From: an uncultured Actinomycetes bacterium
Lineage (GTDB): Bacteria > Actinomycetota > Actinomycetes > S36-B12 > CAIYMF01
Reading direction: 5' to 3'
Assembly: GCA_963843975.1 (NCBI GenBank)
Contig: CAWJMG010000003.1
Coordinates: 30,001-62,000, forward strand
DNA: 32,000 nucleotides
A program made the translations under genes and the position numbers. Numbering within the stretch: position 1 is the first letter of the stretch; every line of letters starts with the position of its first letter. Of the stretch, positions 9,942-31,483 are shown in pieces. The notes below the pieces were generated by a model, which saw only the letters and a program-made list of their open reading frames with translations, was not told where the DNA came from and did not search any database.

Positions 9942-10183
9942 ACTCGGGTGTTCCTTTCGCTGGAGGCGCTGGGGTGCTTGCCGCCTACCGCCGGGCCGGC
10001 CCAAGCCCGGCCCGTGCGTGTTGCGGAGTATTCACTGGACCTTTGGACCGAATCAAGGCCTTGGGGGAACCGTTTACCTCGTCGAAACGGTCACCCGTTC
10101 GGTCCAGGCTCACGCGGGGTTCGGGGAAATCTGCGCGTAACGGTCTGCTGAACCGCCGCCTCGCACCAGCACTGGTGAAGATT

Positions 10184-10216
10184 TGGTCTTGTTTTGGTCT
10201 GGTCTTTCGGTATGCT
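10184..10216 (+). promoter_or_regulatory. Candidate promoter of the BMC operon with three direct TGGTCT repeats (possible GntR/HutC operator)
   Basis: TGGTCT at 10184-10189, 10195-10200 and 10200-10205. TTGTTT (10189-10194), 16 nt, then TATGCT (10211-10216) resembles a sigma-A-type -35/-10. SD GGGAGG lies at 10241-10246 before ATG 10251. Confidence 0.35.
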
Positions 10217-13748: not shown

Positions 13749-14188
13749 GCACCGGCCTCGGCGACTCCGAGCGCGACCTGCTGCGCCAGATGGTGCGCCA
13801 GGTCCTGCAGGAGGTCGTGCCGGAGACGATGGCTGCGGCCTCGGCGTCAGGCGGCGCGTCCGACGAGACCGTCGTGCTGACCAACGACGCCGAGCTGGAG
13901 GCGTTCGTGCGCCGCGTCGCCGTGCTCTGCGAGGACCCCGCCGAGCGCGAGGCGCTGCGCAGCGGGAGCCGCCGCTTCCACCTGGCCGGGCACCCGACGA
14001 CGTCGGCGGCTGCTCCCGCCTCCGCAGCCGCGGTGGTCCGGGTCGACAAGGGGGCCGTCACCGAGCGGCACGTGCGCGAGGCGGCGTCCCAGGGCGCCGA
14101 CCTCGTCCTGGGACGCGGCGCCGTCCTGACTCCGCTCGCGCGCGACCGCGCGCGGGCTGCGGGCGTCCGGATCACGAAGGAGAAGTGA
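13745..14188 (+). CDS. Hypothetical BMC-locus protein (amphipathic N-terminal helix, Ala/Ser linker, ~50-aa C-terminal domain)
   Basis: 147 aa; ATGA overlap upstream and TGATG overlap downstream. N-terminus is SERDLLRQMVRQVLQEVV. C-terminus is VVRVDKGAVTERHVREAASQGADLVLGRGAVLTPLARDRARAAGVRI. It occupies the slot of the uncharacterised gene between shell genes in RMM loci. Confidence 0.7.
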   Translation: MSTGLGDSERDLLRQMVRQVLQEVVPETMAAASASGGASDETVVLTNDAELEAFVRRVAVLCEDPAEREALRSGSRRFHLAGHPTTSAAAPASAAAVVRVDKGAVTERHVREAASQGADLVLGRGAVLTPLARDRARAAGVRITKEK

Positions 14189-14778
14189 TGCTGCGCGGAC
14201 GGGTGATCGGGAACGTGTGGGCCAGCCGGAGGCTGGACGAGATCCCTTCAGGCGCGTTCCTGGAGGTGCAGGTCGAGGGTGGCGCGACGCTCATCGCGTT
14301 CGACGTCCTCGGCAGCGGGATCGGGGAGGCCGTGCTCGTGTCCACGGGGTCGGTCGCGGCCTCGTGGTTCCCGGGCGACGCACCGCCGATCGACGCGCTC
14401 ATCATCGGCTCGATCGACGAGAAGCCGGGCAGCGCAGCTCCCGGACCACAGCCCCGCGCCGCACGCCGGCGCGGTCAACGAGGAGGAACACGCATGTCGA
14501 ACAACGCGATCGGTCTCATCGAGACCAAGGGGTACGTCGCTGCACTCGCCGCCGCCGACGCGATGGTGAAGGCCGCGAACGTCGTGATCGTCAGCAAGGA
14601 CACCGTGGGCGACGGCCTGGTGGCCGTGACCATCGTCGGCGACGTCGGCGCGGTCAAGGCTGCGACCGAGGCCGGTGCCGAGACGGCGTCGTCGGTCGGA
14701 GAGCTCGTCTCCGTGCACGTCATCCCGCGTCCGCACGCCGAGCTCAGCAAGCACTTCACGGTCAGCGGCGACGCGTGA
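14188..14778 (+). CDS. Continuous ORF: BMC-P (EutN/CcmL pentamer) domain, 21-aa linker, then BMC-H domain
   Basis: MLRGRVIGNVWASRRLDEIPSGAFLEVQVEGGATLIAFDVLGSGIGEAVLVSTGS...IDALIIGSID is EutN/CcmL-like (aa 1-81). There is no stop before TGA 14776-14778. Confidence 0.85.
   Translation: MLRGRVIGNVWASRRLDEIPSGAFLEVQVEGGATLIAFDVLGSGIGEAVLVSTGSVAASWFPGDAPPIDALIIGSIDEKPGSAAPGPQPRAARRRGQRGGTRMSNNAIGLIETKGYVAALAAADAMVKAANVVIVSKDTVGDGLVAVTIVGDVGAVKAATEAGAETASSVGELVSVHVIPRPHAELSKHFTVSGDA
14494..14778 (+). CDS. BMC-H hexameric shell protein (PduA/EutM-like), from an internal start
   Basis: MSNNAIGLIETKGYVAALAAADAMVKAANV...GDVGAVKAATEAG...GELVSVHVIPRPH is canonical Pfam00936-type sequence. It has its own SD, GAGGAGGAA (14480-14488), before ATG 14494. 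Confidence 0.95.
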   Translation: MSNNAIGLIETKGYVAALAAADAMVKAANVVIVSKDTVGDGLVAVTIVGDVGAVKAATEAGAETASSVGELVSVHVIPRPHAELSKHFTVSGDA

Positions 14779-15425
14779 GCGCGGCCCCGATCGCGGGGCC
14801 GGAGCTGCGTGTCTACCTGCTGATCGAGGATCTGCAGCAGCAGTTCGCGGCGTATCTCGGTACGCCGACACGAGCACGCGGCTACCCGCCGTACGCCGGG
14901 CAGCACGCGCTCATCATCGAGGTCGCACCCGGCCTCGCCATCGAGCGCGTGACGCACCAGGCGCTGACGTCGGTGCCCGACATCGAGCCGGGCATCCTCT
15001 TCGTCGAGCGTCAGTTCGGCGTGCTCGAGGTGCACGCGTCGTCGCTCGACGACGTGCTGCGCGCAGGCGAGGCGATCCTCGACGGGCTCGGCGCGGAACC
15101 GGCCCACCAGCTGGCCCCGCGCGTGCTGTACCACGACGTCATCGAGCACGTCACGGACATGCACGCCGTCATCATCAACCGCAACCGGCAGGCCTCGATG
15201 CTGCTGCCGGGGCAGTCGCTGCTGGTCTACGAGATGACCCCTGCGCTGTTCGCCGCCGTCGCGGCGAACGAGGCCGAGAAGGTGGCGCCGGAGAACACGC
15301 TCGTCGACGTGCAGATGATCGGCGCCGCCGGCCGCGTCTACATCGGCGGCACGACCGAGGGCGTCACGAAGGCGCGCGACGCGATCACGAAGGTCCTCGA
15401 CTCGATCGAGGGCCGTCGGCACTAA
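14775..15425 (+). CDS. BMC shell protein, double-domain (BMC-T class), paralog 2
   Basis: 216 aa. GTG 14775 overlaps the BMC-H stop (GTGA). Co-linear with the 13146..13748 product. Ends in TAA, which directly abuts the tandem repeat. Confidence 0.75.
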   Translation: MSAAPIAGPELRVYLLIEDLQQQFAAYLGTPTRARGYPPYAGQHALIIEVAPGLAIERVTHQALTSVPDIEPGILFVERQFGVLEVHASSLDDVLRAGEAILDGLGAEPAHQLAPRVLYHDVIEHVTDMHAVIINRNRQASMLLPGQSLLVYEMTPALFAAVAANEAEKVAPENTLVDVQMIGAAGRVYIGGTTEGVTKARDAITKVLDSIEGRRH

Positions 15426-15533
15426 GTTCCAGCAAGCACGGGTTCCAGCAAGCACGGGTTCCAGCAAGCACGGGTTCCAGCAAGCACGGGTTCCAGCAAG
15501 CACGGGTTCCAGCAAGCACGGGTTCCAGCACGG
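15426..15533. repeat. Perfect tandem repeat: 6 copies of the 16-mer GTTCCAGCAAGCACGG plus one 12-nt copy lacking AGCA
   Basis: Units start at 15426, 15442, 15458, 15474, 15490 and 15506, all identical. A seventh copy, GTTCCAGCACGG, spans 15522-15533. The array is intergenic between BMC-T2 and the kinase. Confidence 0.97.
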
Positions 15534-15566
15534 CACGTCCCTGTCGTACGACTCGTAGGGAGAACG

Positions 15567-16548
15567 GTGAGTTCCGAGCTCGACACCGACCACCTCGAGG
15601 TCTTCGCGCGCGGCGCGGTGGCCGAGCACGGCATGCCGGACGCCGAGATCACGCTGCTGAACGTGTCGGAGAACGCGACGTTCCGTGCCGACTCCGCCGA
15701 CGGCCGTCGGCTGGTGCTCCGGGTGCACCGCACCGGCTACCACTCGCGCGAGGCGATCGAGAGCGAGCTGGCTTGGATCTCGGCGCTGCGCGCGGACGGG
15801 ATCGTGCACACGGCCCCCGTGATCCCCACCCCTGACGGCCGCGACATCGTCGCGGTGCGCCACCCGGGCGGCGAGGAGCGGCAGGTCGTCGCGTTCGAGT
15901 GGATGAACGGGCACGAGCCGCCCGAGGACCGTCTCGTCGACGACTTCCGCGAGCTCGGTGCCATCACCGCACGCCTGCACCGGCACGCGCGCGAGTGGCA
16001 GCGCCCGGCCGGTTTCACCCGGTTCCGTTGGGACTTCGACACCTCGCTCGGTGCGAACGGGCACTGGGGCCGTTGGCAGGACGGGCTCGGCATGGGACCG
16101 TCCGAGCTCGAGGTGCTCGGTCGTGCGGCCGACGCCGTGCAGCGCCGGCTCGCCGCGTTCGGCGCCGGGCCCGACCGCTTCGGCCTCGTCCACGCCGACA
16201 TGCGCCTCGCCAACCTCCTCGTCGACGGTGACAGCGTCTGCGTGATCGACTTCGACGACTGCGGCCTGTCCTGGTACCTCTACGACCTCGGGTCGTCGCT
16301 GTCGTTCATCGAGCACCTGCCGGTCGTGCCCGAGCTGCATCGACTCGTGGATCACCGGCTACCGCACCGAGGGCACGCTGAGCGCCGAGGAGGTCGCCGA
16401 GCTCCCGACCTTCGTGATGCTGCGCCGCCTGCTGCTCGTCGCGTGGATCGGCTCGCACTCCGCCGTCCCGGAGGCTCAGGCCCTCGGCGCCGACTTCACC
16501 ACCGTGTCCTGCGACCTCGCGGAGAAGTACCTCGTCCAGTTCGGCTGA
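15567..16548 (+). pseudogene. APH-family (phosphotransferase) amino-alcohol kinase, RMM-type; frame broken by one extra nucleotide near 16335-16340
   Basis: GTG 15567 (SD GGGAGAA). Sensible sequence runs to ...VIDFDDCGLSWYLYDLGSSLSFIEHLPVVPEL and then becomes nonsense. The next frame reads IDSWITGYRTEGTLSAEEVAELPTFVMLRRLLLVAWIGSHSAVPEAQALGADFTTVSCDLAEKYLVQFG, stop 16546-16548. That stretch is co-linear with the intact paralog at 20532..21533. Span is 982 nt (3n+1). Confidence 0.85.
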
Positions 16549-17396: not shown

Positions 17397-18194
17397 ATGA
17401 CCGAGACCGACGCCCTCCTGGGGCCGACGGCCGATGAGGCGCGGCGCAACATCGTCGGCCTCATCACCTCCGGCGCGCTGCGACCAGGTCAGCGCCTCGG
17501 CGCCGAGCGTGATCTCGCCGTGCAGCTCGGCGTCAGCCGGTCGACCCTGCGCGCCGCCCTGGCCTCGCTCGAGCAGGACGGCCTCGTTCGTCGCGTCCCC
17601 GGCCGCGGCGGCGGCACGTTCGTCGCGCGGGAGAAGATCGACCGCGACCTCTCGCGCATCGTCGGCGTGCCCGCGCTCCTGCGCGACCAGGGCTACACCG
17701 CCGGCACCCGCGTCGTGAGCGGTGCGGTCGCGCCCCCCGATCCGGATGCGCGCGCGGCGCTCGAGATGGACGACGACTCGTTCGTCGTCGACCTCGTGCG
17801 CATCCGCCTCGCCGACGGAAGCCCCATCTCGCTCGAGCACGCGCGCCTGCCTGCCGAGCGCTTCCCCGGTCTGCTCGAGCGCCCGCTCGGCGGCTCGCTG
17901 TACCAGCTGCTCGAGAAGGAGTACGGCGTCGGCCCGCACCAGGCCGTGGAGAGGCTCGAGGTCGTGTCGGCATCCGACGACGAGGCACGCGTCCTCGGCG
18001 TCCCGTCCGGCTCGCCCCTGATCTCGATCACGCGCACGACCACCGACTCCGACGGCCGGCCGTTCGAGTACTCGCACGACCTGTTCCGCGCGGACCGCAC
18101 CCGCATCACCGTGCGCACGTACGGAGCACCGGCGGGCGCGGGGATGGACGCGACCCGCGGCCGTCTCGTCGAGGTCCGCGACAACACCGCCTGA
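17397..18194 (+). CDS. GntR-family regulator, HutC-like (winged HTH plus UTRA-type effector domain)
   Basis: 265 aa. ERDLAVQLGVSRSTLRAALASLEQDGLVRRVPGRGGGTFV is a GntR wHTH. The C-terminal half resembles UTRA domains (...PISLEHARLP...YSHDLFRADR). Confidence 0.8.
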   Translation: MTETDALLGPTADEARRNIVGLITSGALRPGQRLGAERDLAVQLGVSRSTLRAALASLEQDGLVRRVPGRGGGTFVAREKIDRDLSRIVGVPALLRDQGYTAGTRVVSGAVAPPDPDARAALEMDDDSFVVDLVRIRLADGSPISLEHARLPAERFPGLLERPLGGSLYQLLEKEYGVGPHQAVERLEVVSASDDEARVLGVPSGSPLISITRTTTDSDGRPFEYSHDLFRADRTRITVRTYGAPAGAGMDATRGRLVEVRDNTA

Positions 18195-20465: not shown

Positions 20466-20531
20466 TTCGAGTTCCCAGGTGAGGTGGTAGGTGGCACCAG
20501 GGACGCTCGCGAGGTCGCGGACCGCTCGACC

Positions 20532-21533
20532 TCAGGCCAGGTAGGTGCCGCTCAGGTAGGACTCCGCGAGCTCGCACGTCTCGGTCGTGAACGGCGCGCC
20601 GAGCTCGCGCGCCTCCTCGGCGTACGAGTGGTGGGAGCCCACCCATCCCACGAGGAGGAGCCGTCGGAACATCACGAGCGTGGGGATGATCCCGACGTCC
20701 GTCGAGGTGAGAGGGCGCAGGGTCTGGTAGCCGGCGAGCCACGGCTGCATCCAGTCGCTGGCGCGGGGGTCGGCCTCCAGGAAGCTGACCGCGGTCGCGA
20801 AGTCGTACAGGAACCACGAGAAGCCGCAGTCGTCGAAGTCGATGACCTTCACCTGGTCACCGTCCACGAGCAGGTTCGTCAGTCGCAGGTCGTTGTGGGC
20901 GAGCCCGAACCGGGCGGGGTCGGTGCCGTACGCCGCCAGCTCGCGGCGGATCTGGTCGTCCACCCGCTGCAGGAGCCGGCGCTCGTCGGCACCCATCCCG
21001 AGCCCGTCCTGCCAGCGACCCCACATGGCCCGGGCGCCCAGCGCGGCGTCGTAGTCGCACGTGTACCTGGTGAAGGTCGAGGGCCGTGCCCAGGCACCAC
21101 CGTGCAGGTGCATGGCTGCGGCGAGCCGGCCGAGGACCTCGAAGCTGGCCTCCAGCCCGCTCTCGGTGCTGGGTGCCGCGCCGTCCATCCAGTCGAAGAG
21201 GACGACGTGGCGGCTGTCGCCGTCCCCGACAGGCAGCGTGGTGAGCCGGCCGCCGTCGCGCCGGCGGATCGCGGTCGGGGGATCGACGACGCCGTCAGCG
21301 CTGAGCGCGTCGAGCCAGAGCAGCTCGGACTCGATCTCCCGGCCGGAGTGGTATCCGGGGCGGTGCACACGCATGGCGGCGACGCGACCGCTGTCGGGAT
21401 CGACCACCTTGTACGTGGTGTTCTCGGACACGTTGATCAACGTGACGTCCGACCGAGGAGACAGCTCGTAGTGCTCCAGCACCGAGCGAGCCACTGAGTC
21501 GAGCGAGGTGATCATGACCTCGGCGCCGTCCAT
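20532..21533 (-). CDS. APH-family (phosphotransferase) kinase, intact paralog of the RMM kinase
   Basis: ATG 21533 (SD GGAGGGGG) opens MDGAEVMITSLD... It shares VSEN.T..., RVHR.GYHS..EIESEL.W..AL, GRWQDGLGMG and NLLVDGD.V.VIDFDDCG.SW.LYD with 15567..16548. Confidence 0.85.
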   Translation of the reverse strand: MDGAEVMITSLDSVARSVLEHYELSPRSDVTLINVSENTTYKVVDPDSGRVAAMRVHRPGYHSGREIESELLWLDALSADGVVDPPTAIRRRDGGRLTTLPVGDGDSRHVVLFDWMDGAAPSTESGLEASFEVLGRLAAAMHLHGGAWARPSTFTRYTCDYDAALGARAMWGRWQDGLGMGADERRLLQRVDDQIRRELAAYGTDPARFGLAHNDLRLTNLLVDGDQVKVIDFDDCGFSWFLYDFATAVSFLEADPRASDWMQPWLAGYQTLRPLTSTDVGIIPTLVMFRRLLLVGWVGSHHSYAEEARELGAPFTTETCELAESYLSGTYLA

Positions 21534-21591
21534 GCTCCCCCTCCGGTCCGCTCGACCACGTGACGTCGTGGCCGTCCTGCTGCGCTGTGGC

Positions 21592-21701
21592 CAAAGGCAC
21601 AAGGACCAAACCATAAGTGACGACGGAGGGAGAGACAAGGTCCGACCGTGTGGTGGCAGTCCTTGCCCGCGGGCACTTACGGGCCTAGGTTTAGACCATT
21701 A
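21592..21701. promoter_or_regulatory. Back-to-back divergent promoter module A (homologous to 27668..27778)
   Basis: Rightward: TTGCCC (21663-21668), 17 nt, TAGGTT (21686-21691), then TAGACCATTA. Leftward, on the minus strand: TTGTCT (21633-21638), 17 nt, TATGGT (21610-21615). Confidence 0.5.
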
Positions 21702-21754
21702 ATCTGCCGGTGGGGCTCGCCTCCACCATCCGTACCCGAGGAAGGGCGGCACCT

Positions 21755-22153
21755 GTGGCCTCGAGCAACACGGACGTCGAGTTCGTCCCACCGAGCGGCT
21801 TCCTCGCCAAGGCTCCCCTGAGCGCCGCCGTGCGGGTGGGCGATCTGGTGCTGGTGTCGGGCCAGATCGGCATCGACGACGCCGGCGTCGCGCTGCGGGG
21901 CATGGCCGAGCAGACGAAGGCCTGCATCGAGGCCGTGGCGGCCGCACTGGCGCCCGTGGGCGGCAGCCTCGCGGACGTGGTCCAGACGCGGGTGTACCTC
22001 ACCGACTTCAGCGGCTACGACGACTACAACCGGGTGTACCGCGAGTACTTCGCCGAGCCCTTCCCGGCCCGTGCCACGGTGGGCACGCCGCAACTCGCTC
22101 TGGGCGCCCAGATCGAGATCGAGGCTGTCGCCGTCCTGCGCCGGGCCGACTGA
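21755..22153 (+). CDS. ridA: RidA/YjgF-family reactive enamine/imine deaminase
   Basis: 132 aa from GTG 21755 (SD GAGGAAGGG). VLVSGQIG...VYLTDFSGYDDYNRVYREYF...PARATVG...GAQIEIEAVAV is typical of RidA. Confidence 0.85.
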   Translation: MASSNTDVEFVPPSGFLAKAPLSAAVRVGDLVLVSGQIGIDDAGVALRGMAEQTKACIEAVAAALAPVGGSLADVVQTRVYLTDFSGYDDYNRVYREYFAEPFPARATVGTPQLALGAQIEIEAVAVLRRAD

Positions 22154-22211
22154 GCCGACTGCCCACGCCTGGCGCTGATCGCTGCAGCCACGTCCGATCG
22201 AAGGAGCACCG

Positions 22212-23243
22212 GTGCCGAGGACCACCCACGTCGACTTCCTGGGACGGTCGGCACGGACCGGCGACTGGGCCGAGCGATCGCGCGGCACGTACACGGTCCT
22301 CGCGGAGGCTCTGGAGCGTGGTCAGTGGGAGGACGCCGACGAGCTCCTCGAGGTGACGTTGCTCGAGGCGGAGGAGCTGCGCGACGTCTACTCGGTGTGG
22401 CCGCAGGCGATCGCCGCATGGCTGACGTCGCAGGGGGTCGACGCCGACCGGCTTGCTGCACGCGTCGCGGAGCTCCGCTCGGTGATCGGGGGCGAGGGCG
22501 CCGGTGACGTGCTCGCCGGCTGGGACCAGTACGTCGACCTCACCCATCGGGCGCAGGCGTTGGTGCGGCAGGCCAGCCCGCGAGCAGTCGTTGCCGTCGA
22601 GGACGCTCGTCGCTCGTGGGAGGCCACGCACGATCGGGGCGTCGACGACGTCTACGGGATGCTCAGCATCGCGGTCGAACTCCTGGGCGAGGAGTGCCTC
22701 CGGGACCTGTGGGACCACCTCATGTCGGACTGGTACGACGACCACGCGCGGAGGCTCGATCCGGCCAACCAGTCGTGGAGGACCTCGAGGGAGCAGCTCG
22801 CGCTGGCGATCACGGACGGCTTCCACGCCCACCTCTCGGGCCGGAACAGGCTCGGGGACATGGAGCTCATCGAGGAACCGGACCGGGTCGGGTTCAGGTT
22901 CGCTCCCTGCGGGTCCGGAGGCCGGGTGCTGCGCGACGATGCGGCCGGTGGCGCACGGCCAGAGGCCCCGTTCGGGTTCGCAGTCACCGAGCGGGCGCAC
23001 CCCTGGGCCTTCGGACTGGTGGGGGTCGGCGCCTACTGCGTCCACTGCTGCCTGCTCAACATGACCGTGCCGGTCGAGCGCATCGGCTTCCCGACGCGCG
23101 TGATCGAGCCGCCCACGTGGCCGGACTCGCGTGAGGGCGGCACCTGCACGTGGTGGGTGTACGACGATCCCGCGTCGGTGCCGGCGGATGTCGTCGGAAG
23201 AGTGTCGGATCCCGGCCGCGCCGAGGACGAGGAGGACGCGTGA
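22212..23243 (+). CDS. Uncharacterised 343-aa protein: helical N-terminal part and Cys/His-rich C-terminal part
   Basis: GTG 22212 follows GAAGGAG, and G/C-rich third positions run throughout. Motifs FAPCGSGGR, YCVHCC and GGTCTWW. Its stop overlaps the next start (GTGA). I recognise no family. Confidence 0.65.
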   Translation: MPRTTHVDFLGRSARTGDWAERSRGTYTVLAEALERGQWEDADELLEVTLLEAEELRDVYSVWPQAIAAWLTSQGVDADRLAARVAELRSVIGGEGAGDVLAGWDQYVDLTHRAQALVRQASPRAVVAVEDARRSWEATHDRGVDDVYGMLSIAVELLGEECLRDLWDHLMSDWYDDHARRLDPANQSWRTSREQLALAITDGFHAHLSGRNRLGDMELIEEPDRVGFRFAPCGSGGRVLRDDAAGGARPEAPFGFAVTERAHPWAFGLVGVGAYCVHCCLLNMTVPVERIGFPTRVIEPPTWPDSREGGTCTWWVYDDPASVPADVVGRVSDPGRAEDEEDA

Positions 23244-24556
23244 GCCGTTCGCGAGTGCCGCTGACACAGCTCGAGGTGCCTGACTACGACCTCGGTCTGC
23301 GGGGGAAGCTGCTGCGCGCCGACAAGGTGGCCAAGGCAGGCGGCAGCGCCTTCTGCACCATCATCTACGGGCTCGATCCCGAGGACGGGGTCGCAGACAC
23401 CCCCCTGTCCTCCGCAGCCAACGGCTACCCCGACGCGTTCGCCGCCGTCGACGAGTCCACGCGGGTCCCGCTCTCCTGGCGGGCGGGGACCGACGCCGTG
23501 ATCGCCGACCTGGTCGACGGGTCGGGCACGCCGCTCGAGGAGTCGCCGCGGGTCGCCCTCGCCCGCGTCATCACCGCTTTCAGGAGCCGCGGGCTCGAAC
23601 CGGTGCTCGGTTTCGAGTACGAGTGCCACGTCCTGCACGCTGATGACGACGTGCTGAGCCGCGGCGACTACGGCGCCGTGCGCCCGCTCGGGCGCGAGGA
23701 GAACGCCTACAGCCTGAGCCGGCTGGTGGAGTCGGGGCCGCTGTTCGCGGAGTTCGTCGACCGGATGGACTCCATCGGTGTCCCCGTGGAGGCCTGCCAC
23801 TCGGAGCTCGGTCCCGGCTTCTTCGAGTACGCGCTCGCACCTCTGCCCGCACTGCGAGCCGCCGATGCCGCGGTGCGTAGCCGCCTCTACTTCCGGGAGC
23901 TGTGCGCAGAGCGGGGCCTCCACGCCACGTTCATGGCCAAGCTGCGGATCGAGACGTCCGGGGCCGGCGGGCACGTGCACCAGAGCGTCCTGCGGGACGG
24001 GATGAACGCGTTCGCCGGGGACTCGGACGGGCTGTCGCCCCTCGGCCGGAACTACCTCGGCGGGCTGCTGGACGCCATGGCCGACTCGACGGTGCTGTTC
24101 AACCCGTTCCTCAACTCCTACAAGCGGATCAGTGCCGGGTTCTTCGTCGCCGAGCAGGCGTCGTGGGGCCGGGACGACCGCAACGCGGCCTGCCGCGTGA
24201 TCACCGGACCGGGCTTGGAGGCCTCGCGGATCGAGCACCGGCGGCCGGGGGCGGATGCGAATCCCTACCTTGCGGCGGCGGGCATGCTCGCGGGCGGACT
24301 GCACGGGATCGAGCGGGAGATCGTGCCTGGCCCGCCGGTGTCCGGCGGCTCGTCGAGCACCGCACCGGCAGTCCCGAACTCCCTCGAATCCGCGCTGGCG
24401 GCCTTCCGGTCGTCCACGGTCCTCGCCGACAAGCTGGGCACCCGCCTGGTCGAGTCGTACGCCGCCACGCGGCAGGCTGAGCTGGATTCGTTCACGCGGT
24501 GGTGGGCCACGACGGTGACCGACTGGGAGAAGCGCCGGTACATGGAGCACCTCTAG
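23240..24556 (+). CDS. Glutamine-synthetase-like enzyme (gamma-glutamyl-amine synthetase candidate), copy 1
   Basis: 438 aa from GTG 23240 (SD GAGGAGGA). GAGGHVHQS, NSYKRI and RIEHRRPGADANPYL are GS catalytic-domain motifs. Confidence 0.8.
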   Translation: MSRSRVPLTQLEVPDYDLGLRGKLLRADKVAKAGGSAFCTIIYGLDPEDGVADTPLSSAANGYPDAFAAVDESTRVPLSWRAGTDAVIADLVDGSGTPLEESPRVALARVITAFRSRGLEPVLGFEYECHVLHADDDVLSRGDYGAVRPLGREENAYSLSRLVESGPLFAEFVDRMDSIGVPVEACHSELGPGFFEYALAPLPALRAADAAVRSRLYFRELCAERGLHATFMAKLRIETSGAGGHVHQSVLRDGMNAFAGDSDGLSPLGRNYLGGLLDAMADSTVLFNPFLNSYKRISAGFFVAEQASWGRDDRNAACRVITGPGLEASRIEHRRPGADANPYLAAAGMLAGGLHGIEREIVPGPPVSGGSSSTAPAVPNSLESALAAFRSSTVLADKLGTRLVESYAATRQAELDSFTRWWATTVTDWEKRRYMEHL

Positions 24557-24586
24557 GCGCTCCGCGACGACGAACGGATCGAGACC

Positions 24587-25294
24587 ATGACACGTCGACC
24601 CATCGTGGGGATCACCGGCTTCCACGGCCACTGGACGTACGCGCACGGCCAGGACCAGTTCACGGGCGTCGAGCGGGTCTACACGGACACGATCCTGCGC
24701 TCCGGAGGGATGCCCGTGCTGCTCATGGCGGGCATCGACGCGATCGACGAGGCGTTGGACCTCGTCGACGCGCTGCTGCTGACGGGTGGTGCCGACGTCG
24801 ATCCGCTGCACTACGGCCATGATCGCGCGCTGCACACCGGTGACTCAGACCCCGAGCGCGACGAGTTCGAGATCGCCCTGGTCCGGGGTTCCGTGCAACG
24901 CGACCTGCCCACGCTGGCGATCTGCCGGGGCCACCAGCTGGTGAACGTCTGCCTGGGCGGCCACCTCCATCAGCATGTGGAGGGGCATGAAGGCATCCAG
25001 TCCCCGGGGGCCGGCGTCCACGAGGTGACGGTCGTGCAGGGGAGCCGCCTGCACGACGTCCTCGGCACCACGTCGGTCTGGGCCAACTCCTTGCACCACC
25101 AGGCCGTCGCCGAGCCGGGCGACGGGCTCACCGCCGTCGCCACTGCTCCCGACGGTGTCGTCGAAGCGACGGAGCACCAGGCTCTGCCGCTCCTGACCGT
25201 GCAGTGGCATCCCGAACGCCAGCACGACTCGGACGTGTACGGGACGCTCGTCGACTGGCTCCTCGAGCAGGCTCGCAGCCGCATGGGCGGGTGA
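24587..25294 (+). CDS. Class-I glutamine amidotransferase-like gamma-glutamyl hydrolase (PuuD/peptidase C26 family)
   Basis: 235 aa. LLLTGGADVDP, the catalytic AICRGHQ, and VQWHPE. Confidence 0.8.
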   Translation: MTRRPIVGITGFHGHWTYAHGQDQFTGVERVYTDTILRSGGMPVLLMAGIDAIDEALDLVDALLLTGGADVDPLHYGHDRALHTGDSDPERDEFEIALVRGSVQRDLPTLAICRGHQLVNVCLGGHLHQHVEGHEGIQSPGAGVHEVTVVQGSRLHDVLGTTSVWANSLHHQAVAEPGDGLTAVATAPDGVVEATEHQALPLLTVQWHPERQHDSDVYGTLVDWLLEQARSRMGG

Positions 25295-25347
25295 CGGCCG
25301 CAGTCCGTGTCCTAGTGGTCGGAGCGGTGCCGCCTGGCACGGCTGCT

Positions 25348-26730
25348 TCAGGCGCGCTCGTGGTACCTCTGGAGCTCCCAGTGGGTGACGGGCCCGAGCT
25401 GGAACGCGTCGACCTCGCTCTGGGCCGAGCGCAGGAGATGCTCGAAGACCTCGTCCCCGAAGCTCTCGCGAGCGAGGGCTGACGCGGCGAACCTCGCGAC
25501 CGACGCCATCATCGTGCCGGTCATGTGCTCCAGGGCGCCGTCCTCCTCGGCGTTCCCCTCGTGGAACGGCGGTGTCGGCCGAGAGTCACGGATGCCCTGC
25601 AACCCCGCTGCGATGACCGCGCTGTAGGCGTAGTACGGGTTCGCATCAGCACCAGGGACCCTGTGCTCCAGGTGGAGAGTCGGCCCGTGTCCGACGATGC
25701 GGAACGCGCACGACCTGTTGTCGTCGCCGAGGGCGATCGTGGTCCCCGCGAACTGGTTGGTGCGATAGCGGCGGTAGGAGTTCACCGTGGGCGCGAACAG
25801 GACTCCGAGCTCCAGCACATGGTCGATCTGGGCTGCGACGAACGAGCCGAAGGCCGGTGCGATGCCCTTCCTGTCCGAACCGAGCGGCACTGCGCCGGCC
25901 CCGTCCCAGAGGCTCACGTGGATGTGGCAGGAGGAACCCACGTCGTCGACGTCCGGCTTCGCCATGAACGTGACGGTGACGTGGTTGCGCCGCGCGAGAT
26001 CCTTGACCCCGTACTTGAAGAGCACGTGCCTGTCGGCCATCTCCAACGGCTCGCAGTAGGTGAGGGTGATCTCCTGCTGGCCTCGCCCCCACTCAGGCTT
26101 GGCAGCCTCGACGGGCACGCCGAACTCAGGCATCTGCGTGCGGATCTGACCCAGGAACCAGTCGTCCCTCGCAGCCTGGATGAGCTGGTAGTCGGAGCGG
26201 TTGTCGGTGATGCGCGGAAGGTTCGCGTAGCCCGCCTCACGAGCGGCGTCCGGCTCGATCGTGTAGGCGTAGAACTCCAGCTCCGACGCGAGCTTGAGGG
26301 ACAGGTCGAGCTCGGCCAGCCGTGCGATCTGTCGCCGCAGGATCGTCCTCGGCGCCACGTCGATCAGGGAGTCGCCGTGCGCCTGGTAGGCGTCGCAGAT
26401 GACCAGGGCGCAGCGAGGCTCCCAGGGTATCCGTCGGAGCGTCGGCAGGTCCGGGACGAGCCGGATGTCCCGGTACCCGTTGGTCGCGTTGGCGATGGGC
26501 AGGTCGACCGGGGTCAGCTCCAGGTCAAAGGCGAAGATCACCCCGCTGACATGGATCCCGTCGCCCTCAAGACATAGCGTGCGGAAGCTGTCGACGGGCA
26601 GGCGCTTGCCCACCAGCCGGCCGTACGGATCGGGCGCCGCGCACACGACGGTGTCGATCTCTCCTTGCGCGGCGAGCTCCTCGAGCTCCTCGACGGACAG
26701 CGTGCGGCGGCCTCCGTGGTTCACGGTCAC
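25348..26730 (-). CDS. Glutamine-synthetase-like enzyme, copy 2
   Basis: GTG 26730 (or 26724) follows GAGGAGAG. GSSCHIHVSLW, NSYRRY and LEHRVPGADANPYY. The upstream 64 codons of ORF 25348..26922 were judged non-coding. Confidence 0.8.
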   Translation of the reverse strand: MTVNHGGRRTLSVEELEELAAQGEIDTVVCAAPDPYGRLVGKRLPVDSFRTLCLEGDGIHVSGVIFAFDLELTPVDLPIANATNGYRDIRLVPDLPTLRRIPWEPRCALVICDAYQAHGDSLIDVAPRTILRRQIARLAELDLSLKLASELEFYAYTIEPDAAREAGYANLPRITDNRSDYQLIQAARDDWFLGQIRTQMPEFGVPVEAAKPEWGRGQQEITLTYCEPLEMADRHVLFKYGVKDLARRNHVTVTFMAKPDVDDVGSSCHIHVSLWDGAGAVPLGSDRKGIAPAFGSFVAAQIDHVLELGVLFAPTVNSYRRYRTNQFAGTTIALGDDNRSCAFRIVGHGPTLHLEHRVPGADANPYYAYSAVIAAGLQGIRDSRPTPPFHEGNAEEDGALEHMTGTMMASVARFAASALARESFGDEVFEHLLRSAQSEVDAFQLGPVTHWELQRYHERA

Positions 26731-26788
26731 GGGCTCTCCTCGGGGCTGGTCTGGTGCAGCTGCTCGTCCTCCACGTCGTCTGGCCGGC

Positions 26789-27568
26789 TCAGGTGAGGGC
26801 GAACCCGCCGTCGACGACGAGATCGGCGCCCGTGACGTAGGCCGCCTGGTCGCTGAGGAGGAACGCCACGCAGGCCGCGACCTCAGACGGGTGCGCGAAG
26901 CGCCCGAGCGGCACGCGCCCATCGAGCGCCGGCGGCAGGGTGCCGATCTCGCCGTGGGCGTCGGCCATGGGTGTGGCCACGAAGCCCGGCGCCACGGAGT
27001 TCACCCGGACTCCTGCCGGGGCCCAGGCCCGTGCCGCGCTCCGCGTGAGGGAGGTCAGTGCTGCCTTGGAGGCGGCGTAGTGCGGGTTGGGATCAGGGTC
27101 GGAGAGCGCCACGACCCGGTGCGCCTCGACGGACGTGACGTTCACGACGGCGCCGCCGCCGGCGGCGCGCAGCCGAGGACCCAGGAGGTCGAGCAGCGAG
27201 TACGCGGCAAGGAGGTTCACCTCGAGGGTGCTCTGCCACATCGACCGCGGCACCCCGTCGAAGCCATGGTCGGGGAGCACCCCCGCGCAGTTGACGACGT
27301 ACGACACCGGTCCGTCCGTCAGCGCCGAGTCGAGCGCGTTCTGCAGCTGTTCGGTGTCGCGGACGTCGGCCTCAGCGTGGACGAGGCTCCCCGGGGCGTC
27401 GGCGGGACGGCCGCCCAAGGGGCTCCGCGAGACTCCCACCACGTGCAGCCCGCCGTCCGCCAAGGTGGTCGTGATGGCCGCGCCGATGCCGCTCGACGCG
27501 CCGGTGACGACCGCCCGCCCGCCGGCGAACGTGAGGGCGAGACGCGAGACCGGGGTCACCGGGCGCAC
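26789..27568 (-). CDS. Short-chain dehydrogenase/reductase
   Basis: VVTGASSGIGAA, NCAG and YAASKAA. The start is uncertain: GTG 27568 or 27559. The ORF-track start at 27670 lies in lower-GC3 sequence that overlaps the promoter module. Confidence 0.75.
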   Translation of the reverse strand: MRPVTPVSRLALTFAGGRAVVTGASSGIGAAITTTLADGGLHVVGVSRSPLGGRPADAPGSLVHAEADVRDTEQLQNALDSALTDGPVSYVVNCAGVLPDHGFDGVPRSMWQSTLEVNLLAAYSLLDLLGPRLRAAGGGAVVNVTSVEAHRVVALSDPDPNPHYAASKAALTSLTRSAARAWAPAGVRVNSVAPGFVATPMADAHGEIGTLPPALDGRVPLGRFAHPSEVAACVAFLLSDQAAYVTGADLVVDGGFALT

Positions 27569-27667
27569 CCGAGTCCACGGGCCTGCCGAGCAGTTCGGTA
27601 GCGCATGTCGATCGACCTCCGACCTGGCTGGTCCGCGGCCCGGATGCTCGTCGGCGACCCGGTCCAT

Positions 27668-27778
27668 CAAAGGAACAATAGATGAACCATAAGTGCGATC
27701 GGCGACCGGGACAAGGGCGACGCCACGGCGTCCACCACCTTGCTCAAGGGGTGATTCGGGCCTACCTTTAGACCATTA
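27668..27778. promoter_or_regulatory. Back-to-back divergent promoter module B (homologous to 21592..21701)
   Basis: Rightward: TTGCTC (27740-27745), 17 nt, TACCTT (27763-27768), then TAGACCATTA. Leftward, on the minus strand: TTGTCC (27709-27714), 17 nt, TATGGT (27686-27691). Confidence 0.5.
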
Positions 27779-27845
27779 GAGGCGCACCGGCCCCGTGGTC
27801 GCAACGCCGATACATCGCGGATGGCCGAGCGCTGATGGAGGACTC

Positions 27846-29210
27846 GTGACGGACATGCAGGTGATGCGGGACAGCTGGTCGATGGACGAGCAGGAGCTGC
27901 GCGACGCACTGCCCCCGATGGAGTGGGACTACGCCACCGCGCTGCATGACCGCGAGACGTACCTGACGCCGGTCCTGAAGACGTTCCAGGCGACGACGAA
28001 GCCGATCCTCATCAAGCGCGGCGAGGGTCAGTACGTCTTCGACGCCGACGGCAACCGCTACATCGACACCGTTGCCATGAACCAGGCGATCAGCGCCGGG
28101 TACCGGAGCCCGTACGTGATGGCCTCGGTGCGCCAGCAGCTCGAGGACATGCAGCACTGCTCGACCATGTGGATGCACCCCGCGCCGGCCTCGCTCGCCA
28201 AGGCCCTGATCGACAAGATGCCCGAAGGCGACTGGGTCGTGCACTTCCTCAGCAGCGGCACCGAAGCGGTGGAGCTCGCGGTCCTCATGGCGCGCAACTA
28301 CACCGGCCGCCACACAGTCCTCGGGCTTCGATCGGCCTATCACGGAGGGGTCAGCTCCACCGCCAACGCGCTGACGTCGATCAGCCGGTTCCACCACAAG
28401 CTGCCGTCCGCGTCCGGTGTGATCCACGTGGCCAACCCCGACCAGTACCGCGGCATCCACGGACCGGGCGTGGAGCCCTACCTCGCCGAGTTCAAGGCGA
28501 CCATCGCCTCGTCCACCAACGGCGAGTTCGCGGCGTACATCTACGAGCCGATCCAGGGGTACGGCGGCGTCATCCCCATGCCGACCGAGTACGTCCAGCG
28601 GTCGGTGCAGCTGGCGCGGGAGCACGGCGCGCTCGTCATCGCGGACGAGGTCCAGACGGCGATCGGTCGCACGGGTTCCCACTTCTACGGCTTCGTCGAG
28701 CATGGCGTCGTGCCCGACATGGTCGTCATGGCGAAGGGCCTCGGAAACGGGTTCCCCTTGTCCGCCGTCGTGGTCCGCCGCGAGATCGCGGAGGGGATGA
28801 CGCACGGCAAGGCATTCATGAGCACCATGGGGTCGAACCCCACCTGTGTCGCTGCCGGACGCGGGGTGATCGCGGCGCTCGACCACGGTGGCCTGCAAGA
28901 GAACGCGCGACAGGTCGGCGAGACGGCGATCGGCATGTTCCGCGAGCTGCAGTCGCGCTACGAGGTGGTCGGCGACGTCCGCGGCAAGGGCCTCATGCTC
29001 GGCATGGAGCTGGTCAAGGATCGCGACACCAAGGAGCCGGCCACCGAGCTCGTCAACATGATCGCGGACGAGATCTCGGACTCGGTGATCGTCACCAAGG
29101 CTGGCCAGTTCGGGAACGTCCTGCGCCTGGTCCCACCGCTCTGCTTGACAGCCGACGATGCGGCCGTGGTCGTCGAACGACTCGACGCCATCCTGCGCCG
29201 CCAGGCCTGA
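27846..29210 (+). CDS. Class-III aminotransferase, AGXT2-like subgroup (transaminase or phospho-lyase)
   Basis: GTG 27846 follows GGAGGA. ADEVQTAIGRTG and VMAKGLGNGFPLSAV (PLP lysine) resemble AGXT2 and the AGXT2L phospho-lyases. Confidence 0.8.
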   Translation: MTDMQVMRDSWSMDEQELRDALPPMEWDYATALHDRETYLTPVLKTFQATTKPILIKRGEGQYVFDADGNRYIDTVAMNQAISAGYRSPYVMASVRQQLEDMQHCSTMWMHPAPASLAKALIDKMPEGDWVVHFLSSGTEAVELAVLMARNYTGRHTVLGLRSAYHGGVSSTANALTSISRFHHKLPSASGVIHVANPDQYRGIHGPGVEPYLAEFKATIASSTNGEFAAYIYEPIQGYGGVIPMPTEYVQRSVQLAREHGALVIADEVQTAIGRTGSHFYGFVEHGVVPDMVVMAKGLGNGFPLSAVVVRREIAEGMTHGKAFMSTMGSNPTCVAAGRGVIAALDHGGLQENARQVGETAIGMFRELQSRYEVVGDVRGKGLMLGMELVKDRDTKEPATELVNMIADEISDSVIVTKAGQFGNVLRLVPPLCLTADDAAVVVERLDAILRRQA

Positions 29211-29222
29211 GGCCCCAGCCGG

Positions 29223-30749
29223 GTGAACGTCGGGAGCTTCCTCACCAAGGCTGCGCGGGTGCACCCGCACCGACCGGCGGTGACAGACGACAGGGTCAGC
29301 CTCACCTACGAGCAGATGGATGCGACGGCAGAGCGGGTCGCGTCGTACCTCAGCGAGCGTGGGCTGGCCCCGGGCGACCGCGTCGTGCTGTTCATGGCCA
29401 ACCGCGCGGAGTACCTCACGCTGCTGTTCGGCATCTTCAAGGGCGGATTCGTCGCGGTGCCCGTCAACGCGAAGCTGCACGTGTCCGAGGTCGCGTTCAT
29501 CATCGAGCACTGCGCCGCGGGGGCCGTGCTGGTGGATGCGAAGAGCTCGTCGCTGGTCAGGGGGCACGTGGGCGGCGCCGCGGTCGTGCACGTCGACGAC
29601 GAGGAGCTCGACTGGCTCCGGCAGGGGGCCCAGCGCACGGGCTCCTTCGTCGACCACGCCGTCCGGCCGGACGATCCTGCCTGGATCTTCTACACGTCTG
29701 GGACGACCGGGCGTCCCAAGGGGGCCACCCTCACCCATCGCAACCTGCGGGTGAGCGCCATGAACGCGCTCGCCGACATGTGCGACTTCCAGCCCGAGGA
29801 CGTGGTGCTCCACGTGGCGCCGCTCTCGCACGGGTCCGGGCTCTACGCATTGCCGGCGGTCGCCCGTGCTTGCTCGAACGTGATCCACGTGGGCGGCTCG
29901 TTCCAGGCCGACGACGTCCTCGAGAGCATGCGACGCCTGGGTGTCACCGTCGTCGCCTTCATGGCGCCGACGATGATCCACATGCTGCTGGAGAGCGACC
30001 TTGCCGCGCCGCCTCTGGTGCGACGGATCATGTATGGCGGAGCGCCCATCGACGCAGGCCTCGTCGCGAGGGCCATCGACCGTTTCGGACCGGTCTTCGT
30101 GCAGCTCTACGGCATGGGGGAGTCGCCGATGACGATCACCTACCTCCGGCCGGCGGACCATCGTGGGCACACGGTCACGTCCGCCGGGATACCTCGGACC
30201 GACGTGGAGGTCCAGGTGCTCGACGACGTCGGCAACTCGGTGGCCGACGGCGTCGAAGGCGAGATCTGCGTGCGTGGGGACATCGTGATGGCGGGCTACT
30301 GGAACGACCCGGACGCCACGGCTCGGGCGCTCCGCGACGGATGGCTGCACACAGGAGACGTGGGACGCTTCGAGTCAGGGTTCCTCTTCCTGCTGTCGCG
30401 CCGGAACGACGTGATCATCTCCGGAGGAAGCAACATCTACCCCCGCGAGGTCGAGGAGGCCCTGATGCAGCATCCGGCCGTCACCGATGCCTGCGTGTTC
30501 GGGGTCCCAGACGACAAGTGGGGGGAGTCCGTCGTGGCGGCCGTCGTCGTGGACCAGCCCACGACCGTGGACAGCCTGCTCGACACCTGCCGCGAGCACA
30601 TCGCCAGCTTCAAGAAGCCGAGCGCGGTCGTGTTCGTCGACGCGTTGCCCGTCAGCGCCTACGGCAAGGTCCTGCGGCGCGAGGTACGCGACGGCTACCT
30701 CCGGGGCCTCGCCGAGTCCGTGTCCGCGACGGCTGGGGAGCGGCCGTGA
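29223..30749 (+). CDS. AMP-dependent acyl-CoA synthetase/ligase (class-I adenylate-forming enzyme)
   Basis: 508 aa. YTSGTTGRPKGA, YGMGES, HTGDVG and the C-terminal FKKPSAVVFVDALPVSAYGKVLR. Confidence 0.85.
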   Translation: MNVGSFLTKAARVHPHRPAVTDDRVSLTYEQMDATAERVASYLSERGLAPGDRVVLFMANRAEYLTLLFGIFKGGFVAVPVNAKLHVSEVAFIIEHCAAGAVLVDAKSSSLVRGHVGGAAVVHVDDEELDWLRQGAQRTGSFVDHAVRPDDPAWIFYTSGTTGRPKGATLTHRNLRVSAMNALADMCDFQPEDVVLHVAPLSHGSGLYALPAVARACSNVIHVGGSFQADDVLESMRRLGVTVVAFMAPTMIHMLLESDLAAPPLVRRIMYGGAPIDAGLVARAIDRFGPVFVQLYGMGESPMTITYLRPADHRGHTVTSAGIPRTDVEVQVLDDVGNSVADGVEGEICVRGDIVMAGYWNDPDATARALRDGWLHTGDVGRFESGFLFLLSRRNDVIISGGSNIYPREVEEALMQHPAVTDACVFGVPDDKWGESVVAAVVVDQPTTVDSLLDTCREHIASFKKPSAVVFVDALPVSAYGKVLRREVRDGYLRGLAESVSATAGERP

Positions 30750-31483
30750 CCGCGCCCACGGCCGTCGTGACGGGCGCGGCCGGCGGAATCGGCCTGGCGG
30801 TGTGCCGCCGCCTCGCCGCTGACGGGTACGAGGTGCACGGGCTCGACGTCCGGCCCATGCCCGAAGGGGTCGCGCCGGGAGTGGTCGGCGCCGTGGTGGA
30901 CCTGTCCGACGCGTCCGCGCCGCGCCGGTTCTTCGCCGAGGAGTTCGACGGGCGCCCGCTCACGACTCTGGTCAACGCCGCCGGGGTTGCCTTCTTCGGG
31001 CGGGACGAGTCGGCGCTCGAGGCTGACGAGTCGCTGTGGTCGCGAACCCTGCAGATCAACCTGGACGGCCCTCGACGGATGTCCGCAGCCGCGCTGCCCG
31101 CCCTCCGGCGCGCGACCGGAGCGTCGATGGTCCACGTGGCGTCGATCGCGGGGCTCCGGAACATGGACTCGCCGATGGATGCTTACCAGGTGTCGAAGAC
31201 GGCTGTCGTCGCACTGTCGCGAAGCTTCGCGGTCCAGCTCGGGCCGGAGGGCATCCGCTCCAACACCGTGTGCCCAGGGGCGGTTCTGACGCCGATGATC
31301 TCCCACCTCTACGACGAGGATCCCGCGCGGCGGACGCGTATGGAGGCGAAGACGCCCCTGCGGCGACTGGGGGCACCGGACGACATCGCGGAAGCCGTCG
31401 CGTGGCTGGCGTCGTCGGCCGCGAGCTTCGTCACCGGTGCGGATCTCGTCGTCGACGGCGGCTGGTCGGTCGTCACTCCGTAG
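30746..31483 (+). CDS. Short-chain dehydrogenase/reductase
   Basis: These are the last 246 codons of the artefactual 28169..31483 ORF. GTG 30746 overlaps the ligase stop (GTGA). VVTGAAGGIGLA, NAAG and YQVSKTA. Confidence 0.8.
   Translation: MTAPTAVVTGAAGGIGLAVCRRLAADGYEVHGLDVRPMPEGVAPGVVGAVVDLSDASAPRRFFAEEFDGRPLTTLVNAAGVAFFGRDESALEADESLWSRTLQINLDGPRRMSAAALPALRRATGASMVHVASIAGLRNMDSPMDAYQVSKTAVVALSRSFAVQLGPEGIRSNTVCPGAVLTPMISHLYDEDPARRTRMEAKTPLRRLGAPDDIAEAVAWLASSAASFVTGADLVVDGGWSVVTP

Follow-up and report, generated by a model that had tools for sequence, protein, structure and literature searches.

The window, i.e., the whole 32-kb stretch of DNA analysed here, carries a perfect tandem repeat, located between a shell gene and a kinase gene of a bacterial microcompartment operon. 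Judged from its sequence, the locus is an RMM2-type microcompartment operon of a Longivirga-like actinobacterium. [quoted passage not shown] 2014 as encoding an amino-alcohol-degrading microcompartment (PMC4207490). We recovered this gene complement by Pfam matches and by synteny with the locus of Longivirga aurantiaca (Sporichthyaceae), the closest named organism, in which the gene order at the locus is identical and the BMC-T2 orthologue shares 96.8% amino acid identity with that of the window.

The locus and its tandem array

The genes of the locus and the parts of the spacer are arranged as follows:

from 10251, plus strand: class-III aminotransferase (Pfam and synteny)
from 11567, plus strand: aldehyde dehydrogenase (Pfam and synteny)
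from 13146, plus strand: BMC-T1 (Pfam and synteny)
between BMC-T1 and BMC-P, plus strand: 147-aa protein without assigned function
thereafter, plus strand: BMC-P, BMC-H and BMC-T2, in that order
14775-15425, plus strand: BMC-T2 shell gene, 216 aa, tandem BMC / CsoS1D_N type (homologues carry PF27545 CsoS1D_N)
15423-15425, plus strand: TAA stop of BMC-T2, read directly from the sequence
15426-15521, plus strand: variable part of the array, six identical 16-nt units GTTCCAGCAAGCACGG (sequence read and Tandem Repeats Finder)
15522-15533, plus strand: short terminal copy GTTCCAGCACGG (sequence read and cross-contig comparison)
15534-15566, plus strand: constant 33-nt 3' flank, ending at the kinase start (sequence read and cross-contig comparison)
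15557-15562, plus strand: Shine-Dalgarno sequence AGGGAG, within the 3' flank
15567, plus strand: GTG start of the kinase, 33 nt beyond the end of the array
15567-16545, plus strand: APH-family kinase gene (Pfam), the amino-alcohol kinase of RMM loci
downstream of the kinase, plus strand: SDR
17397-18194, plus strand: GntR/UTRA (GntR/HutC) regulator (Pfam)
minus strand: permease, formamidase, and fused diol-dehydratase with its reactivase

The GTG start of BMC-T2 overlaps the stop of BMC-H, and the Shine-Dalgarno sequence in the 3' flank ends 5 nt before the GTG of the kinase. Tandem Repeats Finder placed the array at 15426-15530 (period 16, 6.6 copies, 100% matches) with a score of 210, by far the highest in the window (runner-up 60). 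At up to three mismatches, the unit was matched eight times in the window, compared with 0.33 matches expected from shuffled sequences, and eight matches were reached in none of 100 shuffles. Outside the array, the only matches in the window at this threshold are at 1360 (three mismatches) and at 29864 on the minus strand (one mismatch). GC content is 0.61-0.64 over 15400-15599 versus approximately 0.70-0.75 in the surroundings. The descriptive statements of the earlier note thus all hold, namely six perfect 16-bp copies directly after the TAA of BMC-T2, a GC content below that of the surroundings, and a BMC shell gene upstream and a kinase downstream; its statement that the window has no other copy of the unit stands as well, given that the nearest matches outside the array carry one and three mismatches. 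The copies are arranged head to tail and the unit falls within roughly 10-100 bp, as in a variable-number tandem repeat (VNTR) or minisatellite.

The minus-strand match (29864-29879, GTTCGAGCAAGCACGG) agrees with the unit at 15 of 16 positions and lies antisense within an AMP-binding enzyme gene. It has no tandem structure, approximately 0.001 such matches are expected by chance, and it is probably a coincidence. In the divergent permease/aminotransferase promoter region (10170-10215) we observed three direct TGGTCT repeats (gatTTGGTCTtgttTTGGTCTGGTCTttc), which are likely the operator for the HutC-type GntR regulator of the locus. Another cluster, at 20500-31000, consists of genes that look like those of amino-alcohol or amine catabolism. 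It includes an APH paralogue (50% identity with the kinase of the operon), an SDR, an AMP-binding enzyme, a class-III aminotransferase, two glutamine-synthetase-like genes and a C26 peptidase of the gamma-glutamyl hydrolase type; the cluster has no match in the 20-kb L. aurantiaca locus that we fetched.

Relative to L. aurantiaca, the window has five frame-breaking indels. At four of the five sites, other relatives (L124, L113, L001 or L131) also lack the indel:

7391: +1, formamidase (compared with L. aurantiaca alone)
12383: -2, aldehyde dehydrogenase
14434: -2, BMC-P, whose TAG stop loses its TA so that BMC-P reads into BMC-H
16337: +1, APH kinase, which is an intact 326-aa protein in relatives
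16866: +1, SDR

Every indel is located at, or destroys, an AGCT, and only 3.2% of positions are that near to any of the 127 sites. The other genes of the window appear full length by Pfam coverage. The link to AGCT points to systematic consensus error at a motif that may be methylated, or alternatively to real decay of the operon. If real, the deletion at 14434 predicts a pentamer-hexamer shell fusion of BMC-P (EutN) and BMC-H (14188-14778); in relatives, BMC-P (82-84 aa) and BMC-H (94 aa) are encoded by separate genes. The array call is unaffected by these indels, because contig L113 independently shows 16-nt units.

Array alleles in close relatives and their absence elsewhere

We gathered BMC-T2/kinase spacers from 102 orthologous loci. 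Ten contigs, the window included, carry the array at exactly the same site, starting at the first base after the TAA, with the following full units:

window: 6 x 16 nt, perfect
L001 (ENA): six imperfect units of 16-17 nt
L113 (Logan): 3 x 16 nt, one mismatch
L124, L125, L128 and L130 (JGI): 3 x 17 nt
L126: 4 x 17 nt
L127: 2 x 17 nt
L131: two units, 17 + 18 nt

Coverage of L001 is only 2.8x, and some of its unit variants may be errors. Short-read assemblers may miscount repeats; arrays of 34-68 nt are shorter than typical reads. Gaps between BMC-T2 and the kinase measure 79, 93, 95, 96, 113, 141 and 145 nt among the array alleles. Copies are alike within a genome, and it is between genomes that unit length (16 or 17 nt) and copy number (2-6) vary, as does the unit junction (CACGG/G, CACGGG/G or CACCGG/G, the slash marking the boundary). 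The BMC-T2 protein (P0017) is the same in contigs L124-L128, whereas their gaps measure 79, 96 or 113 nt and differ in steps of exactly 17 nt. Such whole-unit differences in copy number among close relatives at one locus are those of a VNTR. The proposal that the array is a copy-number-variable spacer is thereby borne out: relatives have 2, 3, 4 or 6 full units rather than an invariant number, even where the shell protein is the same, and the variation thus reaches down to the population scale.

The short terminal copy reads GTTCCAGCACGG in nine of the ten array contigs and GTCCAGCACGG in L001, and the 3' flank that follows it (CACGTCCCTGTCGTACGAC..AGGGAGAACG) is common to all array alleles. 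The seventh copy lacking AGCA that the earlier note described is therefore present, but it is a fixed 3' boundary of the array alleles rather than the product of recent decay. All ten array carriers group as a single clade when the adjacent 651-nt gene is analysed by neighbour joining; within this clade, the window and L001, both with six units, are sisters and copy number shifts repeatedly. All ten carriers have at least two full units plus the short copy, and none is in the single-copy state; in this small sample, the retention of at least two units could hint at selection.

Sister lineages (91-95% nucleotide identity in the BMC-T2 gene) have gaps of 34, 44, 51 or 63 nt, which begin with CCTCCRGCAGCACG.. 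and contain one or two decayed copies of the 17-nt period; the spacer of L. aurantiaca, for example, reads CCTCCAGCACCACGGGC GTTCCAGCCGCACGACG. The L129 spacer is 34 nt long compared with 51 nt in L. aurantiaca and in L002/L003, a difference of exactly 17 nt. The duplication-prone site predates the expanded clade, because these outgroup spacers also differ by one 17-nt period. Recent expansion, as deduced earlier from zero divergence among the copies, holds only partly. Six diverged copies of 16-17 nt are found in a sister contig and the whole clade carries arrays, so the array is older and the perfect identity of its copies points to turnover and homogenisation.

More distant RMM operons have gaps of -14 to approximately 119 nt with unrelated sequence, and the repeat was found at the spacer in none of approximately 85 such operons. 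Among the 102 loci, only those of the array clade have an exact tandem duplication in the 200 nt that follow BMC-T2. When 185,579 species-representative genomes were scanned for the tandem form, only 29 single hits emerged, all in unrelated taxa; they are chance-like and speak against a dispersed repeat family. One of the 29 is a two-copy tandem of a near-identical unit (GTTCCAGCAAGCACCC GTTCCAGCAAGCACC) in a Solirubrobacteraceae MAG (L026, 7143-7171, minus strand), which lies approximately 30 nt past a stop codon among unrelated genes and may be of independent origin or a coincidence.

Search for regulatory signals and rival readings

A search of 14500-16500 against Rfam (E<=1) gave no match at the array, the sole hit being a chance-level match to Mcr7 away from it. 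No promoter-like or terminator-like sites were found in 14700-16300, and no inverted repeats or dyad symmetry in the array. We folded the array alone, the array with its flanks, the flank alone and four outgroup spacers. Neither the array RNA nor the whole spacer folds more stably than shuffled sequence (minimum free energy z-scores of +0.3, +0.8 and +1.2), and the z-scores of the four outgroup spacers are likewise non-significant (best -1.7, in one outgroup). In some outgroups, an anti-Shine-Dalgarno-like CCUCC past the stop is paired with the opening codons of the kinase, which is inconsistent across lineages.

With no Rfam match, no terminator and no significant fold, a structured cis-regulatory RNA (attenuator, terminator, riboswitch or processing hairpin) was rejected. 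The related suggestion that processing or attenuation at the array sets the ratio of shell to enzyme finds no support either, as neither a promoter nor excess structure was detected. We also discarded a GntR operator in the unit, which has no dyad symmetry and is unlike the TGGTCT repeats of the promoter region, and an operator at the GTCGTACGAC palindrome of the 3' flank, which is not conserved outside the clade. The unit contains as many C as G (five each) and its GGG tracts are 13 nt apart; from this composition and spacing, we take a Rho-utilisation site and a G-quadruplex in the unit to be unlikely. The 141-nt gap of the window is free of stop codons and in frame with both BMC-T2 and the kinase. 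Stop-codon readthrough or a shell-kinase fusion is not selected, because the gap lengths of other alleles (79, 95, 113 and 145 nt) keep no reading frame, and the open frame of the window is a coincidence. The ORFs that run through the array (15422-15733, minus strand; 14675-15835, plus strand) were dismissed as spurious long ORFs typical of 71% GC DNA.

The array could nevertheless be an expression-tuning spacer, in which variable, unstructured A/C-rich mRNA would uncouple translation of the kinase from termination at the shell gene. It might also give ribosomes a standby platform where the ribosome-binding site is partly sequestered, and copy number would then set the ratio of the kinase and downstream enzymes to shell protein. 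An effect of copy number on kinase translation is conceivable, because translational coupling falls with intergenic distance (reviewed in PMC12548453) and unstructured tails can act as ribosome standby sites (PMC5934652). By local folding, few 108-nt stretches of the operon mRNA are predicted to be less structured than the array RNA (99th percentile of accessibility, mean unpaired 0.48 vs 0.37). A small hairpin is predicted directly downstream, where TCCCTG (15538-15543) pairs with TAGGGA (15556-15561) and overlaps the Shine-Dalgarno sequence, and the retention of at least two units in all carriers would also fit. However, the predicted accessibility may largely follow from the lower GC content, and the predicted hairpin is no better than those of shuffled sequences (z +1.2). 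Furthermore, the sister lineages and the approximately 85 RMM operons do without the array, many with overlapping genes or gaps <35 nt, and near-identical contigs differ in copy number with no compensating change nearby. We consider a tuning spacer unlikely. That the array might moreover be a slippage-driven, copy-number-tunable standby or decoupling element, through which populations would vary translation of the amino-alcohol kinase and downstream enzymes against that of the shell proteins as with a contingency-like dial on organelle stoichiometry, appears distinctly unlikely.

Iterated binding sites for a DNA-binding regulator (e.g., GntR), an RNA-binding protein or an sRNA had been proposed as well, and seven evenly spaced identical motifs in a locus with GntR/HutC regulator genes (17397-18194) would be consistent with them. 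Yet the unit has no dyad symmetry and no copy elsewhere in the window, including the divergent promoter region with its TGGTCT repeats, the 16-17-nt spacing is out of helical phase, and the unit itself varies among carriers. Sister lineages with the same GntR regulators and the approximately 85 distant operons lack the array altogether, and we found no support for this highly improbable role. Relaxed constraint in an operon decaying into pseudogenes would make the six-copy expansion a by-product, in keeping with the five window-specific frame-breaking indels (FmdA, AldDH, BMC-P stop, APH and SDR). Their location at AGCT motifs in all five cases, however, speaks for systematic consensus error rather than random decay, and the array carriers L124 and L128 have intact 326-aa APH and 262-aa SDR genes, which leaves operon decay a very improbable cause. 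While suspect indels elsewhere in the source assembly and the proneness of tandem repeats to copy-number miscalls might raise the concern of an assembly or sequencing artefact, nine other contigs have the unit in tandem at this site, including 16-nt units in L113. The array in the BMC-T2/kinase spacer is genuine, because these independent ENA, Logan and JGI assemblies carry the same unit at the same site, and the probability of an artefact is close to nil.

Relation to known repeat systems and proposed origin of the array

Bacterial VNTR or minisatellite loci serve MLVA typing, for example the loci of Mycobacterium leprae with 6- to 27-bp units. Like these, the array has a head-to-tail unit of 10-100 bp, is intergenic, differs by whole units between close genomes, shows high identity of copies within a genome and presumably evolves by slippage or unequal recombination. 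Unlike these, it belongs to an uncultured environmental Longivirga-like lineage, is situated inside a microcompartment operon, and its unit length flips between 16 and 17 nt via a G/C-run at the unit junction. By sequence and distribution, the array has the defining features of a bacterial VNTR or minisatellite, for which we infer an origin by slippage.

REP and BIME elements are palindromic, form stable hairpins, are dispersed genome-wide and shape differential expression within operons. The array likewise consists of repeats that separate cistrons of one operon where two classes of genes meet, but it lacks dyad symmetry and is no more stably folded than shuffled sequence. Contingency repeats have units of 1-9 nt that are located in ORFs or between promoter elements and switch genes on or off. 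The array shares with them presumably slippage-born, reversible changes in repeat number and a position near a gene start. However, it follows a stop codon, ends 33 nt upstream of the next start and shifts neither a frame nor promoter spacing; it is not a usual contingency locus, because it is in neither an ORF nor a promoter. MIRU units measure 46-101 bp. As in MIRUs, the array is actinobacterial, lies between genes of one operon, abuts the upstream stop codon and varies in copy number; unlike in MIRUs, its unit is 16-17 nt long, not a multiple of three and devoid of a sense-strand start codon (ATG, GTG or TTG). MIRUs are mostly intergenic and are thought to be transcribed within polycistronic operons (PMC3635867), and a MIRU carries a small ORF that is coupled to the neighbouring gene by a -4 overlap (PMC12548453). 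They are dispersed over many loci, whereas we found no second locus of the array unit in the 32-kb window or elsewhere in the related loci fetched. Membership of the MIRU family was rejected on unit size and on the coupled small ORF, which the array does not have.

Starting from the observed array with its polymorphism and restricted distribution, and from the lack of known signals in it, we favour, with a probability of approximately 0.77, a near-neutral, lineage-specific VNTR (minisatellite) that is driven by slippage in the BMC-T2/APH-kinase intercistronic spacer. An older 17-nt duplication just past the stop codon (CCTCCRGCAGCACGGGC in sister lineages) would have been the substrate on which replication slippage or unequal recombination acted. 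Expansion would then have occurred in one sub-clade of Longivirga-like actinobacteria, with whole units gained and lost. Such turnover would homogenise the copies within a genome, with unit length and copy number diverging between genomes. Whole-unit steps and homogeneity within arrays suggest slippage or unequal exchange as the mechanism, and near-neutrality is put forward with the same reserve. The one certain consequence of the array is that a poorly structured spacer in the mRNA grows from approximately 45 nt to 79-145 nt. Its effect is most likely neutral, or a small shift in the dependence of kinase translation on ribosomes from the shell gene, because the stop, the Shine-Dalgarno sequence and the start are untouched. 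Sequence comparison gave no sign of a conserved regulatory role, and the array is not required, because many related operons do without it.

As a plain VNTR, the array would have little biological weight, with possible use as a marker that resolves strains among Longivirga-like actinobacteria of fresh water and soil. If copy number tuned kinase output, which no result here demands, the array would represent the first case of microcompartment stoichiometry set by a repeat-based dial. The spacers of this group also form a natural series (approximately 45, 79, 96, 113 and 141 nt) that sets intercistronic distance against the coupling of shell and enzyme genes in a microcompartment operon.
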